A model generated the notes under the pieces. The model did not search any database. It saw only the letters and a program-made list of their open reading frames with translations, and was not told where the DNA came from. 64,000 nucleotides of DNA. Source: Mucilaginibacter sp. (GTDB taxonomy: Bacteria; Bacteroidota; Bacteroidia; Sphingobacteriales; Sphingobacteriaceae). The stretch covers positions 54,026 through 118,025 of the forward strand of contig JAQBOA010000056.1 in NCBI GenBank assembly GCA_028288305.1. The letters are read 5' to 3'. Position 1 is the stretch's first letter. Each line of letters starts with the position of its first letter. The position numbers and the translations under genes were made by a program. This document shows positions 4,746 to 63,481 of the stretch, one piece after another.

Positions 4746-4877
4746 TTAGTAATTAGTATCAAGTATCAGGTATCAAGATTTTATCCTTTGATGCCTGATG
4801 CTTAAAATAAGTTAGTAAAAGTAGAAGGTATCTAAATCATTAAGGATCTTGATACTTGATACTAAATACTTGATACT
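4744..4877. repeat. Inverted heptamer tandem array (ATCAAGT/ACTTGAT)
   Basis: AATTAGT AATTAGT ATCAAGT ATCAGGT ATCAAGA ... TCTTGAT ACTTGAT ACTAAAT ACTTGAT. Confidence 0.85.
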
Positions 4878-5773: not shown

Positions 5774-5777
5774 AAAA

Positions 5778-5872
5778 TTGTCTGAACTAAGATTTTTAAG
5801 ATTAAAAGATGGTGGGATTTTGAATTTTAGTATCCTATAATCCTTAAATCCTAAAAATCTTAGTTCACACAA
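5778..5872. repeat. Palindromic repeat family B (TTGTCTGAAC...GTTCAGACAA with internal AATCCT units)
   Basis: Inverted termini; related copies at 16797-16905, 20717-20742, 24135-24161, 36226-36265. Confidence 0.8.
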
Positions 5873-5907
5873 TTAAACAAACCCCCCATTGCTTTGTTAT
5901 TATCCAC

Positions 5908-7974: not shown

Positions 7975-7979
7975 TTTAT

Positions 7980-8219
7980 TTACGAATTACGATTTACGAA
8001 TTACGATTTTTTATTTCGGATTTTTCACTTTATAATTTGTTTTCAGTGGCGTTCAAGAGTGCTTCGCAGTTTCGGAATTACGATTTCGGATTTAATCTTT
8101 TTTAATTTTGGATGATAAATCTTTATTTATAATTCTCAACATTGAACTGATATTTTTGTCAATTTAGAATTGTCTTACTTTGTTTTTATAAATCTGAAAT
8201 CGTAATTCGTAAATCTTAA
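7980..8219. repeat. Inverted heptamer tandem array (TTACGAA/TTCGGAT ... ATCGTAA)
   Basis: TTACGAA TTACGAT TTACGAA TTACGAT at 7980-8007; second block ~8070-8095; inverted arm ATCTGAA ATCGTAA TTCGTAA at ~8193-8213. Confidence 0.8.
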
Positions 8220-8220
8220 A

Positions 8221-9054
8221 TTAATACCGCACTTCAGTTAGATACAAACCACAAGCCGGTACTGATGTCCCTGCATTACTACGGTTTTTACTTTCAATAA
8301 TATTGCGGACAGCTTCTGGCTCAATTTCATGTTTGCCTACCATTAAAAGGGTGCCTACAATTGCCCGTACCATATTACGTAAAAAACGATCTGCAGAGAT
8401 ATGAAAAACAATTCCATCATCTGTTAGTGTCCATTCCGCTTTTGTTATTTTACAAATATTGGTTTTAACTTGTGTATTTGATTTACTGAAACAGCTAAAG
8501 TCGATATGTTCTTTTATAATATCGGCAGCTTTATTCATTAAAAAAATATCCGGCTTATCACGGATCTGCCAGGAATACCCCTGTTTAAAAGGATCTTTAT
8601 TAAAATGGATATGATACTCATACGTACGTAAAACAGCATCAAACCGTGCGTGTGCACTTGCTTCAACCGGGAAAATATTTTTTACAGCAATATCATGGGG
8701 CAGTATGGAATTTATACTCCTTATCAAATTGATTTTGTCCATAGTCCATAGACCATAGTCCATGGAAGTTTCCCTGTTATTGAGGATGGTTCCCTCATTT
8801 TTACTTTCATTTATGGACCATGGACTATTGACTATGGACTCTCCTTCCGCATCGAAATGTGCAAAAAACTCCCTTGCATGTACACCTGTGTCCGTACGTC
8901 CACAACCGGTAGTCTCAATTTGTTCACGTAAAATAACAGATAGGCTTTTATTCAATACTTCCTGCACGCTTAATGCATTTGGCTGCACTTGCCAGCCATG
9001 ATAACGGGTACCATCAAAAGAAAGTTCAATAAAAAAGCGTTGTTTTTCGGACAC
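8221..9054 (-). CDS. truA: tRNA pseudouridine(38-40) synthase with internal in-frame repeat insertion
   Basis: FDGTRYHGWQVQ, GCGRTDTGVHA catalytic Asp, FLRNMVRAIVG; GTG start. Confidence 0.95.
   Translation of the reverse strand: MSEKQRFFIELSFDGTRYHGWQVQPNALSVQEVLNKSLSVILREQIETTGCGRTDTGVHAREFFAHFDAEGESIVNSPWSINESKNEGTILNNRETSMDYGLWTMDKINLIRSINSILPHDIAVKNIFPVEASAHARFDAVLRTYEYHIHFNKDPFKQGYSWQIRDKPDIFLMNKAADIIKEHIDFSCFSKSNTQVKTNICKITKAEWTLTDDGIVFHISADRFLRNMVRAIVGTLLMVGKHEIEPEAVRNIIESKNRSNAGTSVPACGLYLTEVRY
8737..8839. repeat. Inverted heptamer array inside truA (GTCCATA x4 / TATGGAC x4)
   Basis: GTCCATA GTCCATA GACCATA GTCCATG (8737-8764), 47-nt spacer, TATGGAC CATGGAC TATTGAC TATGGAC (8812-8839). 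Confidence 0.9.
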
Positions 9055-9063
9055 AGAGCAAGA

Positions 9064-9192
9064 AGTGTTGTAATGTTGAAAAGTTGTAATGTTGCAAAGT
9101 TATGGAAAATGTTTTAGAGGATTAGCTCATGAATTCTATATAATCGAATGAGTCAACCTTCAAACCTTACAACTTTTCAACCTTACAACATC
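9064..9192. repeat. Inverted octamer tandem array (GTTGTAAT/AACCTTAC)
   Basis: GTTGTAAT GTTGAAAA GTTGTAAT GTTGCAAA ... AACCTTAC AACTTTTC AACCTTAC AAC. Confidence 0.75.
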
Positions 9193-10315: not shown

Positions 10316-10334
10316 TGGTTGTTTAACATAAGTT

Positions 10335-10444
10335 TCATGGTGAGGCACTCGAACCATGTGGGGTAGCCTTTACATATTGCATTGCGTTAATGCATTAGCG
10401 TTGTGCCTTTGCGCACATGGTTCGAGTGCCTCACCATGACACCC
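10335..10444. repeat. REP-like doublet family I (TCATGGTGAGGCACTCGAACCATGTG arms)
   Basis: Long inverted arms with spacer; homologous to the IS110-interrupted copy at 22307-24010. Confidence 0.9.
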
Positions 10445-16796: not shown

Positions 16797-16905
16797 TTGA
16801 ACTAGGATTCGCAGGATTTTAAGATTATAAGATTAATTTGGTTAATAAGATACAAGTTTATTAATCCTGGCAATCCTTAAATCTTACAAATCTTAGTTCA
16901 GACAA
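16797..16905. repeat. Palindromic repeat family B
   Basis: TTTGAACTAGGATT ... AATCTTAGTTCAGACAA with internal AATCCT/AGGATT units. Confidence 0.8.
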
Positions 16906-31361: not shown

Positions 31362-31467
31362 ATTTCGGATTTCGGAATTTCGATTTCGGATTTCAGATAT
31401 AGGTTTACACCAATTAGGAACGATAGTAAAAAAATAATTTCGAAATCGAACATTCGATATCCGACAT
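31362..31467. repeat. Inverted heptamer tandem array (ATTTCGG/ATCCGAA-like)
   Basis: ATTTCGG ATTTCGG AATTTCG ATTTCGG ATTTCAG ... AATTTCG AAATCGA ACATTCG ATATCCG. Confidence 0.8.
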
Positions 31468-39144: not shown

Positions 39145-39206
39145 TAAAAATGTCCTGCCAGGTTTAATTGACAGGAGGCAAATTTAATGAAATAGTTTGT
39201 TAGTTC

Positions 39207-39324
39207 AGTTTACGGTTGGCAGTTCACAGTTAGCAGCATAAAAAAAGTTACAGTTATCAGCTTGCAGCAGGCAAGTTTATAACACTTATGCAAACTGCCT
39301 ACTAAAAACTGCCCACTGAAATCT
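39207..39324. repeat. Inverted heptamer tandem array (AGTTAGC/GCCTACT-like)
   Basis: AGTTTAC GGTTGGC AGTTCAC AGTTAGC ... GCAAACT GCCTACT AAAAACT GCCCACT. Confidence 0.75.
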
Positions 39325-40667: not shown

Positions 40668-40774
40668 TATTTCGGATTTCGAATGTTCGATTTCGGATTT
40701 ATTTTAATTTCCGATTTATTTCTTAATTTTTGTCTTTTAATTTGTCATCTGCAAATTCGCACATCTGCACATCT
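40668..40774. repeat. Short tandem arrays (TTTCGGA heptamers; CATCTGCA octamers)
   Basis: TTTCGGA TTTCGAA TGTTCGA TTTCGGA; CATCTGCA AATTCGCA CATCTGCA. Confidence 0.7.
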
Positions 40775-43016: not shown

Positions 43017-43076
43017 TGCGCGTCATTGCGAGTCTCCACCAGAGTTTACCCTGGTGGAGACTCGCAATGACGCGCA
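43017..43076. repeat. REP-like family A, perfect 26-bp arms
   Basis: TGCGCGTCATTGCGAGTCTCCACCAG-AGTTTACC-CTGGTGGAGACTCGCAATGACGCGCA. Confidence 0.92.
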
Positions 43077-45629: not shown

Positions 45630-45725
45630 TTGTCATTGCGATCCGCCGATAGGCGGAGAAGCAATCGCGAACTGTGCATAATCGTCATGCATAGTCCGCG
45701 ATTGCTTCGGAGCAACGTGGCAATG
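45630..45725. repeat. REP-like family A (right end truncated)
   Basis: TTGTCATTGCGATCCGCCGATAGGCGGAGAAGCAATCGCG...CGCGATTGCTTC. Confidence 0.8.
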
Positions 45726-53139: not shown

Positions 53140-53247
53140 TGTCCTCGGGTCTCTCGCAGAGGACCCTGCGCTCAATCTCCAAATGAACCGTAATTCTGAA
53201 ATGATTAGGGTGCGCAGGGTACTCTGCGAGAGACCCTGAGAGACCGA
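53140..53247. repeat. REPIN family D copy 1
   Basis: Two inverted REP hairpins GCAGGGTCTCTCGCAGAGGACCCTGC around spacer CTCAATCTCCAAATGAACCGTAATTCTGAAATGATTAGGGTG. Confidence 0.92.
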
Positions 53248-54668: not shown

Positions 54669-54789
54669 TTGTCATTGCGAGCGAGGAACGAGCGTGGCAA
54701 TCGCGAACTGTGCATGACCGCCATACATTACCGCCGGCCAAAACCGCTATGTAAAGTTCGCGATTGCCGCGCTTCGCTCGCAATGACAA
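54669..54789. repeat. REP-like family A
   Basis: TTGTCATTGCGAGCGAGGAACGAGCG...CGCTTCGCTCGCAATGACAA; near-identical arms to 16666-16760. Confidence 0.9.
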
Positions 54790-57838: not shown

Positions 57839-59920
57839 TTAATTAACCTTGTCCCAAACATCTTGTCCAAAGGCCAAAACCTGGGTAATGTGGCCGGCAT
57901 TGTCACTCGTAAATTGTAGCGTAAACCCAGGTTGCTTTTTTGAAAAAAATGATAGCGGGCTTGTGGCTGCAAAATCAATTTGTTGGTCATCCCATAATTG
58001 CTTTAAAACTAAGCCGCTGTCAGTAGCGCTAATTTGTATAAATTGCCCTTTTTCTTTTCTAAACTCATACTTGCCCTCCAGTTTTTTCAGGTCCTGTGCA
58101 GTTAATTTTATTTCGACAGGGGCTTTATAGCTATCATTTCTATCCCAAACATCTCTTCCAAAGGCCAAAACCTGGGTAATGCGACCGGCATTATCAGCGG
58201 TAAACTGGAGGGTAAACTCCGGGTTCTCTTTTGCCGAAAACGCTAAGGGGCTTGTGGCTGTAAAATCAACTTGCCTGTTATCCCATAATTGCTTTAAAAC
58301 TAAGCCATTGCCCGTAGCGGTAATTTGTATAAATTGCCCTTTTCTGTCCTTAAACTCATAATAGCCCTCAAATTTTTTCAGGTCCTGTGCAGTTAATTTT
58401 ACTTCGGCGGGGGGTTGATAGCTGTCAACTTTATTCCAGTCTTGTTTATCTGAGGCCCTGAATTTTGTAGCGATACCCTCGTCATTTTTTGTGAATTTAA
58501 CGATTTTGAGGTAAGGGACGTGAACAAAAAACGAGACATCCGATTGGACCAACATAGTTATTTCTTTGCCATCCCAAAGTTGTTTAGTGATCAATGTGTT
58601 TTGTTTTGCAATAACCTGTACGTATGCCGCCTTATTCGCCTCACTTTGGTAAATTCCTTCCAGGGCCTTAAGCTGCTGCGTATTAAGTGCAGCTTCCTTT
58701 GAGTTACCGTTGTTTGCCTTAAGCCAAACATCCTGGCCAAACGCCAGTACCTGTGTCACATTTCCATCTTTGTCTTTTGTAAACTTAAATGGTGCGTCAT
58801 TCGCTGTGGCAAATCCAAGTTCACTTTTTTGTTTTAGTGAAAATTCGCGGCCGTCCCATAATTGTTTGAGCACTAAAACATTGTTTACTTCGGTTAATTT
58901 GATATATGCACTTTTATCAGGCGTTTGATATAAACCTTCAAAAGCTTTTAAGGGGCCGACATCAAACTTCGCGCTTTTTCCGCTCACGTTTTTCTGCAGT
59001 GTGCTTGCGTTTGATGGGTTAATTAAGAAATAGCTGGCTGCAACCAGCAACAATACAAACGCATACTTGTACGCATTCGTGTTTGGCGATTTTTTTAAAT
59101 TCATCATTTTAATACGAAGTTTAATTTTTGAAGAACTATATAAATTGGTTAATTGGTAGGCCTGGAAGAGTTTAAGCGAACTATGCAGAATACTAAGCTG
59201 ATAGTCCTTTTTATTAACGCCGCTGTTTATAACTTCGCCATCCACAATGTATTCGTGGTTGAGCTTGATACATCGTTTTAAGTAAACCATTAGCGGGTTA
59301 ACCCATAGTATAGCGTGCGCCAGTTCTGCAAAAAGTATGTCTATACTATGCCACTGCCGTATATGTACCTTTTCATGCGAAATAATTTGCTGCAATTCAC
59401 GATCATTAAAAAGTTGTTTGTTGATGACCAGGTAGTTGAAAAAGGAAAACGGAGCAGTTCCGTCAAAAGCACAATAGTAAATACCGCCTGTAAATTGTTT
59501 ATCGGTCTTTTTGATCAGGATGCTGATTTTAAGCAATTTTATAAACAATCTTATCAGTAAGACAAAGCTTACTAATAAGTAGGCACCAACTAAAGTTTGC
59601 ATTAATGAAGGAGGTGTAAAGCCTGGTTTAACGGCAACATAAGCGGTGTTAACGTGCGTATTAACCATTTGCGAATTACCAATAGTTGTGTATAGGCTAT
59701 TTAATGGGTTAGCGGTTGTTATTTGACGTTGAATTGTGTCTAAATGCGAAAAACTCAGCTCAGGCAAAAAAGGCAAAAACAGTGATAACAATAAACTGAA
59801 TAGCAGGTAAAACCTATTTTGCCAAAATGATTTATCGTTTTTAAGCACCAATAAATAAAACAGGAACAATATGGATATGACCACATTGGCCTTTAACAGG
59901 TAGATAATTAATGGTTCCAT
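57839..59920 (-). CDS. M56/BlaR1-family metallopeptidase with four tandem DUF3471-like domains
   Basis: TM N-terminus, APFSFF, HEKVH, NHEY..D; four ~95-aa repeats each with L..(F/L)EG.Y and KQLWD. Confidence 0.9.
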   Translation of the reverse strand: MEPLIIYLLKANVVISILFLFYLLVLKNDKSFWQNRFYLLFSLLLSLFLPFLPELSFSHLDTIQRQITTANPLNSLYTTIGNSQMVNTHVNTAYVAVKPGFTPPSLMQTLVGAYLLVSFVLLIRLFIKLLKISILIKKTDKQFTGGIYYCAFDGTAPFSFFNYLVINKQLFNDRELQQIISHEKVHIRQWHSIDILFAELAHAILWVNPLMVYLKRCIKLNHEYIVDGEVINSGVNKKDYQLSILHSSLKLFQAYQLTNLYSSSKIKLRIKMMNLKKSPNTNAYKYAFVLLLVAASYFLINPSNASTLQKNVSGKSAKFDVGPLKAFEGLYQTPDKSAYIKLTEVNNVLVLKQLWDGREFSLKQKSELGFATANDAPFKFTKDKDGNVTQVLAFGQDVWLKANNGNSKEAALNTQQLKALEGIYQSEANKAAYVQVIAKQNTLITKQLWDGKEITMLVQSDVSFFVHVPYLKIVKFTKNDEGIATKFRASDKQDWNKVDSYQPPAEVKLTAQDLKKFEGYYEFKDRKGQFIQITATGNGLVLKQLWDNRQVDFTATSPLAFSAKENPEFTLQFTADNAGRITQVLAFGRDVWDRNDSYKAPVEIKLTAQDLKKLEGKYEFRKEKGQFIQISATDSGLVLKQLWDDQQIDFAATSPLSFFSKKQPGFTLQFTSDNAGHITQVLAFGQDVWDKVN

Positions 59921-62496: not shown

Positions 62497-62577
62497 GCAG
62501 GGTCTCTCGCAGAGGACCCTGCGTTCTCCCTGGGCATATTGCAGCGCAGGGTCTCGTGCCGGAGACCCTGCGACGAC
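62497..62577. repeat. REP family D doublet with short spacer
   Basis: GCAGGGTCTCTCGCAGAGGACCCTGCG...CGCAGGGTCTCGTGCCGGAGACCCTGCGACGAC. Confidence 0.85.
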
Positions 62578-62580
62578 AGA

Positions 62581-62679
62581 AAAGTCAAGCATGTTGACTT
62601 TCAGGTAAAAAGGCAAACACTCCCTGAAGCGCTGGAGTGGCTTTGGAAAGATTACGACCCGGCGAAGGTTAGGCAATAA
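62581..62679 (+). pseudogene. 3' remnant of an esterase paralog
   Basis: KVKHVDFQVKRQTLPEALEWLWKDYDPAKVRQ* versus ARHVDNKVRKQTLPEALEWLWKDYRPAKVTQ* of 53481-54602. Confidence 0.85.
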
Positions 62680-62688
62680 TGAATATTC

Positions 62689-62801
62689 TGTCCTCGCAGG
62701 GTCTCTCGCAGAGGACCCTGCGCTCAATCTCCAAATGAACCGTAATTCTGAAATGATTAGGGTGCGCAGGGTCCTCTGCGAGAGACACTGCGGAGACCGA
62801 A
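62689..62801. repeat. REPIN family D copy 2
   Basis: Near-identical to 53140-53247 including spacer. Confidence 0.92.
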
Positions 62802-63368: not shown

Positions 63369-63481
63369 TGTCCTCGCAGGGTCTCTCGCAGAGGACCCTG
63401 CGCTCAATCTCCAAATGAACCGTAATTCTGAAATGATTAGGGTGCGCAGGGTCCTCTGCGAGAGACCCTGCGGAGACCGAA
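63369..63481. repeat. REPIN family D copy 3
   Basis: Near-identical to copies 1 and 2, same orientation. Confidence 0.92.

Follow-up and report, generated by a model that had tools for sequence, protein, structure and literature searches.

How does a conserved enzyme come to carry, within its open reading frame, a hairpin built from tandem seven-base repeats? The question is raised by a 64,000-nt stretch of Mucilaginibacter sp. DNA (contig JAQBOA010000056.1), referred to at its whole length as the window, in which the tRNA pseudouridine synthase gene truA contains a 103-base element made of two inverted arms of four imperfect heptamers around a 47-nt spacer. The account that we favour, and consider moderately probable, is that truA here carries, in translated form, one of the heptamer-array hairpins characteristic of this lineage, tolerated repeat DNA that was copied into a permissive loop of the enzyme and reshaped there by slippage. 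A preliminary description, made from the sequence letters, had seen four GTCCATA units, a 47-nt spacer and four TATGGAC units lying inside truA without a break in the frame, and had likened them to the Rickettsia palindromic elements (RPEs) found in coding loops. The spacer, the four-unit arms and the unbroken frame are all confirmed, but the repeats are not exact.

On the plus strand the arms read GTCCATA GTCCATA GACCATA GTCCATG (8737-8764) and TATGGAC CATGGAC TATTGAC TATGGAC (8812-8839); each arm has just two exact units, the other two being off by one base. An inverted-repeat search gave arms at 8737-8763 and 8813-8839 (27 nt, 89% complementary, 49 nt between), to which Tandem Repeats Finder (TRF) assigned a period of 7, with 3.9 and 4.1 copies. 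With up to two mismatches allowed, GTCCATAGTCCATA has six matches in the window, all of them at the truA site, where 0.26 would be expected and 0 of 100 shuffles reach six. The 127-nt region gives a predicted fold of -47.1 kcal/mol as RNA (z = -6.2, equalled by 0 of 200 shuffles) and of -21.6 kcal/mol as DNA (z = -4.9), and nothing in the window matches an Rfam family at gathering score. Within the gene, the element begins at the third base of codon 72 and finishes with codon 106, supplying the 34 residues S73-D106. The translation around the insert is HFDAEGESIVNSPWSINESKNEGTILNNRETSMDYGLWTMDKINLIRSIN, with predicted peptides in TruA such as SIVNSPWSINESK and ETSMDYGLWTMDK.

The open reading frame (ORF) of 277 residues translates as first read, and its product is a TruA: similarity extends across both halves of the protein, the catalytic Asp is present and the frame is intact. 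The catalytic motif GRTDTGVH (GRTDxGVH in general form) occupies residues 52-59 (G52-R-T-D55-T-G-V-H59), with R53, T54, D55, G57 and H59 invariant among the 61 sequences of alignment A1. A phmmer search of the PDB matched E. coli TruA (2nqp/1dj0) at E ~6.5e-28, with two aligned segments, query residues 9-71 and 113-277, on either side of the insert, and E. coli TruA was also the top Foldseek match of the AlphaFold2 model (2nqp_D, E = 1.3e-20). Pfam family PF01416 is recorded for all TruA homologs listed, the closest of which are named as Mucilaginibacter. The loop that holds the insert lies 13 residues past the catalytic motif.

Between the anchors on either side of this loop, the repeat-free relatives L010, L011, L015, L020 and L021 (L numbers denote relatives' loci) have 16-17 residues, compared with 46 in the window TruA, so about 30 residues are extra, as had been estimated; orthologs that lack the repeat have loops shorter by about that amount, and not equally long ones. 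In E. coli TruA, 9 residues (77-85) correspond to 41 (72-112) in the Mucilaginibacter protein. The insert is predicted to be disordered. In the AlphaFold2 model, which was built with 61 sequences and has a modest overall confidence (mean predicted local distance difference test score, pLDDT, of 69), residues 75-105 have a pLDDT below 50 and residues 71-100 lack secondary structure, with a low-confidence helix from G101, in the second arm. RNA data come from low-depth metatranscriptome contigs of relatives that are about 90% identical; one of these, X21 from an L164-like relative, spans the spacer and an arm and continues into truA, which is weak evidence against removal of the insert from RNA. 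Three other candidates were dropped: an intein or intron, the insert being 34 residues long, free of such motifs and present in RNA; phase variation through single units gained or lost, the contigs containing no 7-nt indels; and an assembly artefact, the architecture being identical in the independent assemblies L081, L083 and L164-L170.

Comparison of 119 Mucilaginibacter TruA homologs (at least 69% identity) shows that the loop ranges from 16 to 60 residues, with 25 or fewer in 58 homologs, 26-39 in 21 and at least 40 in the other 40. Patterns for the heptamer-encoded peptides match 89 of the 119, and many of the remaining 30 resemble decayed versions; peptides such as SIVHGPWS and MDHGPWTMD can be recognised in most. 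When the loop DNA was compared for about 40 loci, units were seen to have expanded, duplicated and been deleted in place. Some loops contain one arm (L002, L007 and L090, the last a perfect (GTCCATG)x4), and others two arms with a long or short spacer (the window, L081, L083, L164-L170, L004 and the short-spacer hairpin of L086). The L168 loop has additional arms and that of L084 an internal 45-nt tandem duplication. Every loop keeps the frame, its length being divisible by three, and is free of stop codons. The truA loop is an ancient and hypervariable site and not a recent insertion.

At least one short loop is likely a derived form. Locus L082 is syntenic with the window and about 90% identical in protein, and its loop is 75 nt shorter, with a single (TTCATGG)x4 array. 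In a neighbour-joining tree of loop-masked TruA, calculated without support values, L082 is nested among two-arm sequences, and its downstream spacer is nearly identical to that of the two-arm locus L164; for these reasons we read its short loop as derived. A CATGG core is present in both arms, CCATGG being palindromic, and a deletion between the cores would give the L082 form. Across loci there is no strict correlation between loop allele and downstream spacer type, as L164 and L082 have the same spacer and different alleles. The window sequence is present in soil metagenome runs, and run X4 yielded a 1280-nt contig (depth 55, about 93% identical to the window) in which 150 nt (8694-8845) are replaced by 75 others. 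This contig is the short loop allele of a co-occurring relative from the same soil sample group.

Other lineages have quite different sequence at this site. The loop consists of CCGAAAT units in L013 and of GGCATTG units in L009, L014 and L093, and in these four it was overwritten at a constant length of 14-15 residues. A G+C-rich palindrome (CCCCCCnnCCCCTGAAGG...CCTTCAGGGGnnGGGGGG, encoding PPEGG...FRGLGG) is found in L008, L012, L016 and L091, the loops of L010, L011 and L015 are repeat-free, and the unrelated peptides at the site include SEIEHPKSEI and LALGNGHLAL. The L013 loop, TATAACTCCGAAATCGAACATCCGAAATCCGAAATAA, has a same-orientation counterpart, identical at 37 of 37 nt, in the array that directly precedes the ATG of the next gene, about 570 nt downstream, and the pair looks like the product of a recent copy event. 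Because the nearest relatives of L013 carry GGCATTG units and ATTTCGG arrays are common at the downstream spacer in other lineages, we conclude that copying ran from spacer to loop; because the basal length of 14 residues is retained, the loop was overwritten and not lengthened. In L012 and L008 the loop and the downstream spacer share one palindrome family, and in L014 and L093 they have units in common. Such cases support the view that intergenic-type repeat DNA supplied loop-coding sequence to TruA more than once. The early suggestion that the repeat family can donate peptide loops to conserved enzymes survives for TruA, where it has happened repeatedly, but not for conserved enzymes generally in the truA-centred sample of about 270 kb.

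A second case of translated repeat DNA lies next door. A G+C-rich palindrome in the spacer between truA and the following ABC transporter gene (L165:1126-1200, and also in L085, L087, L090, L003, L005 and L168) has its 3' arm inside an N-terminal extension of the transporter. The called product has 616 residues in L165 instead of 600, and the extension in L090 reads VSDNKDNTKAPPSGGGGGITGKALDW.

We then consider where such arrays normally occur. Counting those with 2.8 copies or more, TRF found 11 period-7 arrays in the window, compared with 0.23 expected per 64 kb from first-order Markov simulations, in which the maximum across 30 was 1. Array density is 0.275/kb in Mucilaginibacter-like loci (243 kb) and 0.042/kb in other Bacteroidota loci (612 kb), a difference of about 6.5-fold; the contig scans of genomes and metagenomes covered chiefly distant Bacteroidota, with only about 30 Mucilaginibacter-like loci. 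Fourteen of the 16 period-7/8 arrays in the window lie wholly within the 18% of it that is outside long ORFs, and the two that are coding are the truA arms. In the roughly 270 kb of Mucilaginibacter DNA, almost all arrays within real coding sequences are likewise in truA, the gene on which that sample is centred. The intergenic arrays form complementary pairs around a spacer, each with its own unit (ATTTTAG/AATCGTA, AGTATCA and ATTTCGG, for example), and typically begin at a stop codon and finish a few nt ahead of the next ATG, the usual order being stop codon, arm, spacer, complementary arm, A-rich stretch and ATG. Orthologous intergenic elements are alike in architecture and not in sequence. 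Heptamer-array hairpins are thus a lineage-specific kind of repeat DNA, and our literature search returned no paper on heptamer arrays in Mucilaginibacter, Pedobacter or Sphingobacteriaceae, and nothing on heptamer arrays arranged as hairpins.

The GTCCATA-type unit itself is also seen outside truA. Many small Pfam-less ORFs, one of them from Pedobacter sp. W3I1, consist of MDYGLWT repeats. A perfect intergenic (TGGACTA)x15.9 array is present at L171:2495-2605, in a 6.4-Mb genome. Public databases contain many such 'hypothetical proteins', which gene callers produce by translating arrays of the MDYGLWT type.

Arrays also border truA on both sides. The octamer-array inverted repeat upstream fills the gap between a DUF892 gene and the truA start. 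In the source soil metagenomes, its arms (9066-9101 and 9155-9190) reach 10-15x the depth of their surroundings, with many loose ends, and many metagenome contigs carry the same arms with differing sequence in between; given this depth and these interiors, the arms look like a multicopy family with variable loops. Downstream, the arrays of the truA-ABC spacer adjoin the stop codon of truA and leave about 7 nt before the next ATG. This spacer is 246 nt long in the window and about 100 nt in L081 and L083, the roughly 150 extra nt (8030-8180) holding more heptamer arms, such as TTTCGGAATTACGATTTCGGATTTA at 8070-8094. As a separate observation, a TAccTTTG motif lies about 3-5 nt ahead of the truA GTG (L013:2985-3002, L014:2214-2231, L082 and L083), which matches the Bacteroidetes -7 promoter box TAnnTTTG; this suggests that the truA mRNA is leaderless or has a very short leader, with heptamer arrays in the upstream promoter region. 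Feature coordinates are collected in Table 1, together with further palindromes of the repetitive extragenic palindromic (REP) type, examples of which have GCGCAGGGTCTCTCGCAGAGGACCCTGCGC-type arms or, at two sites, GTGTCATGGTGAGGCACTCGAACCATGTG arms with a 53-nt loop.

Table 1 Features of truA and its surroundings; positions are those of the window unless a locus is named.
Feature	Position	Strand	Description
truA coding sequence	8221..9054	-	tRNA pseudouridine(38-40) synthase, 277 aa, GTG start, intact frame
First arm on coding strand	8812..8839	-	GTCCATA GTCAATA GTCCATG GTCCATA; codon 72 third base to codon 81; SIVNSPWSI
Hairpin-loop spacer	8765..8811	-	47 nt; encodes about N82-S97 (NESKNEGTILNNRETS)
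Second arm on coding strand	8737..8764	-	CATGGAC TATGGTC TATGGAC TATGGAC; codon 97 third base to codon 106; MDYGLWTMD
Octamer-array inverted repeat	9066..9190	.	GTTGTAAT/GTTGAAAA; 36-nt arms, 86% complementary, 53 nt apart
truA-ABC transporter gene spacer	7975..8220	.	heptamer arrays of TTACGAA, ATTTCGG and TAAATCG types, inverted pairs
Intergenic inverted repeats with tandem 7-/8-mer arms	2500-2592, 4748-4877, 5776-5874, 7980-8221, 9066-9190, 16815-16900, 31362-31467, 39206-39321, 40669-40774		
Identical 37-nt array pair	L013:3205-3241, L013:3783-3819		truA loop and ahead of next ATG; same orientation
REP-type palindromic families	53147-53236, 62497-62801, 63370-63477, 10332-10442, 23901-24011		
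More REP-type palindromic repeats	43017-43076, 45658-45708, 54691-54773		
Tandem duplication	57852-58427		291 nt, 2.0 copies, 83% matches (TRF)

To see what is conserved in the arms, ten two-arm orthologs were aligned (alignment A2). Amino-acid identity is 0.64 in the arms and 0.32 in the spacer, compared with 0.83 in the rest of TruA, and nucleotide identity in the spacer is 0.55, compared with 0.78 in the rest of the gene. As the spacer is nearly free to vary, recent spread of a younger cassette is not a sufficient account of the arms. Where two sequences have the same residue, their codons are identical in 0.737 of arm pairs and in 0.563 of pairs elsewhere (permutation p = 0.001). The pattern follows the heptamer: in the first coding arm, GTCnATn, positions 4 and 7 have identities of 0.53 and 0.64 and the others 0.83-0.95, and the second arm, nATnGAC, is variable at the complementary positions, 1 and 4 (0.47 and 0.61). 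Codon position has little effect on arm identity (0.72-0.93), and third-codon sites that coincide with conserved heptamer positions (A2 columns 27, 99, 102, 108 and 120) are invariant. Base pairing shows no such signal. Across the 27-bp helix in the ten orthologs, 87.4% of cells pair, compared with 87.2% in column shuffles (235/500), and the number of double-change pairs, 5, does not differ significantly from the 2.9 +/- 1.0 expected (40/500). Since pairing is no better than in the shuffles, we claim no selected RNA structure. The arms are conserved as a DNA unit, and not as a peptide or as a pairing.

Translation does leave one visible mark. Unit 3 of the first coding arm reads ...CCA TGG..., where a perfect GTCCATA unit would place an in-frame TAG stop. 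The middle base of this TnG codon (A2 column 35) is G in 10 of 10 orthologs, though heptamer position 7 varies elsewhere, and this avoidance of TAG shows a translation constraint directly. Together with loop lengths in multiples of three, it indicates that protein-level selection seems limited to an open, stop-free frame.

The copying and slippage account would join these results as follows. Flanked by the HFD strand and the RSINxxLP helix, the loop is probably disordered and would accept nearly any sequence. Being sequence-tolerant in this way, and having array-bearing spacers close by on both sides of a short gene, it may serve as a permissive landing site. Arrays would enter or overwrite it by templated copying, through template switching or gene conversion, as suggested by one exact case and several same-family ones; they would then grow into inverted repeats, gain and lose units by slippage, and sometimes collapse by deletion between the palindromic CATGG cores of both arms. 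A force acting at the DNA level appears to hold the arms near the GTCnATn/nATnGAC consensus that the alignment displays, and candidate causes are weak selection on the nucleic acid and repeated correction from other copies of the unit. As for the 34 residues encoded, they most likely form a neutral, flexible loop at the surface.

Several observations weigh against this account. Short and two-arm alleles are both scattered across the neighbour-joining tree, a distribution that would need either recurrent deletion or recombination. Neither the 64 kb of the window nor the flanking DNA of close relatives yielded a GTCCATA donor array, and copying is shown for other lineages, not for that of the window. 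Ten orthologs whose identity at synonymous codons is only about 56% keep the same five heptamer positions; neutral homogenisation by itself explains this poorly, and selection on the nucleic acid may be involved. Finally, the centring of the sample on truA limits statements on how special this gene is genome-wide.

The alternative that best survives, which we think unlikely but deserving of some weight, is that the arms are a selected nucleic-acid element within the coding sequence, either an mRNA hairpin or a periodic protein-binding array in RNA or DNA, with the peptide as a by-product. An element of this kind could act on the stability of the truA mRNA, on pausing during translation or on the expression of neighbouring genes. 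The raised synonymous conservation of the arms beside a free spacer is the pattern of a conserved stem and free loop, and the 7-nt period of conservation, the highly stable predicted fold and the stereotyped placing of intergenic arrays at stop codons and a few nt before starts all suit it. However, the helix lacks significant covariation and an Rfam match, L082 does without one arm, and other lineages have unrelated sequence or a repeat-free loop. The units also vary by site, which makes a single sequence-specific factor unlikely. On another reading, which is tentative and about as doubtful, heptamer-array hairpins would be an undescribed copy-and-paste element class in Mucilaginibacter and the wider Sphingobacteriaceae that has a real nucleic-acid function and is kept inside truA for it. 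If so, the arrays might for example be periodic binding sites for an RNA- or DNA-binding factor that organises gene boundaries, in a phylum without Shine-Dalgarno-led initiation, and the same function at work within truA would account for the conservation of five bases in seven, synonymous sites included.

We think it improbable that an RPE-like element, or one like a MITE (miniature inverted-repeat transposable element), transposed in frame into truA. Inverted arms, a length of about 100 nt and an in-frame position in a loop would fit such an element, in-frame insertion is documented for RPEs (PMC10969869), arrays of the same unit exist elsewhere in other genomes, and the neighbouring octamer-arm element looks multicopy in the metagenome. 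Against this, neither the element nor its spacer has a second copy in the window (13-mers of 8701-8860 recur once, by chance), and no full-length copy was found in the relatives' loci examined. No target-site duplication was found at 8737 or 8839, the flanks TTGATTTT and TCTCCTTC on either side of GTCCATA...TATGGAC lacking a direct repeat. Moreover, the loop is heptamer-derived in most of the 119 homologs and varies in place unit by unit, its length was unchanged by replacement in several lineages, and orthologous intergenic elements have only their architecture in common. With no dispersed full-length family in the DNA surveyed, no duplication and a site that is ancient and hypervariable, the single RPE-type insertion first proposed is not supported; what does hold of the analogy is its outcome, repeat DNA translated as an enzyme loop, and not the nature or history of the element. 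Least probable of all is that the peptide itself is selected, as a new aromatic-rich (W, Y, H) TruA loop that aids tRNA binding or alters dimerisation: the frame is kept and a stop avoided over long evolutionary time, L-M-x-D-G-x-W-x-M-D persists in short alleles while the array decays as DNA, and the catalytic motif is close by, but the loop is predicted to be disordered, its length and peptides vary widely among homologs, and the arms, poorly conserved as protein, are better conserved at synonymous sites.

Under the copying and slippage account, the locus offers a detailed case of non-coding repeat DNA becoming part of a conserved enzyme. One permissive loop would act as a sink into which neighbouring intergenic repeats are copied, and there expanded, inverted and deleted, with an open frame as the only visible filter at the protein level. 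This extends the 'selfish DNA in genes' idea from Rickettsia to free-living soil Bacteroidota and to a different type of element, and provides a natural series of loop lengths, 16-60 residues, for probing insertion tolerance in TruA. Heptamer-array hairpins that run from stop to start are an abundant and apparently undescribed feature of Mucilaginibacter gene boundaries, whose 7-nt periodicity and conserved positions call for explanation. For annotation, the arrays are a source of spurious small ORFs, as with the MDYGLWT-repeat 'hypothetical proteins'.

Among known systems, RPEs are the obvious comparison, being likewise palindromic repeats, about 100-150 nt long, that are translated within a conserved housekeeping protein at a site compatible with its fold (PMC10969869). 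The truA element is also in frame and lies where the structure of a conserved protein is permissive; dispersed full-length copies in the window and a target-site duplication are lacking. RPEs form dispersed families, each sharing a consensus and encoding a conserved peptide, in many unrelated genes, whereas the truA arms are tandem heptamers around a unique spacer and affect one gene in the truA-centred sample. The truA site is also ancient, hypervariable and repeatedly overwritten by different repeats, in a free-living soil member of the Bacteroidota, a host in which sequence homology to described RPE families would not be expected.

REPs, which depend on RAYT transposases, resemble the arrays, as do BIMEs and REPINs, in being intergenic, hairpin-forming, about 100 nt long as doublets and multicopy, and the neighbouring repeat at 9066-9190 does behave as multicopy. 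REPs are extragenic by definition and the truA element is intragenic. REP families have GTAG or CGTC ends (PMC3733652), whereas GTCC opens the truA arms, which have an internal period.

Quasipalindrome (template-switch) mutagenesis in E. coli and slipped-strand mutation of short tandem repeats are close to the inferred route, which would involve copying between nearby repeats, conversion to inverted repeats, gain and loss of units and deletions between direct repeats. These are general mutational processes without an element family, and leave the period of 7 and the richness of this lineage unexplained.

Heptanucleotide tandem repeats of bacteria, among them the cyanobacterial STRR repeats, are also comparable. 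Direct repeats of the heptamer TAACTGA occur just upstream of start codons in Beggiatoaceae, cyanobacteria and five Bacteroidetes, and are occasionally read through in ORFs as seven-residue peptide repeats (PMC4679880); prokaryotic satellites derived from heptamers have also been noted (PMC6749651). The Mucilaginibacter arrays share with the former a period of 7, restriction to lineages, a mostly intergenic position often a few nt before starts, and occasional read-through (PMC4679880). The truA arms have 3.9 and 4.1 head-to-tail 7-nt copies, and the arrays exceed chance and are lineage-specific; as a class they are mostly intergenic and placed at gene ends (14 of 16 non-coding), the truA copy being the exception. 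The published repeats are direct arrays, mostly of one or few units (PMC4679880), whereas those of Mucilaginibacter have many units, stand in complementary pairs around a spacer as hairpins and, in one instance, lie inside a conserved enzyme.

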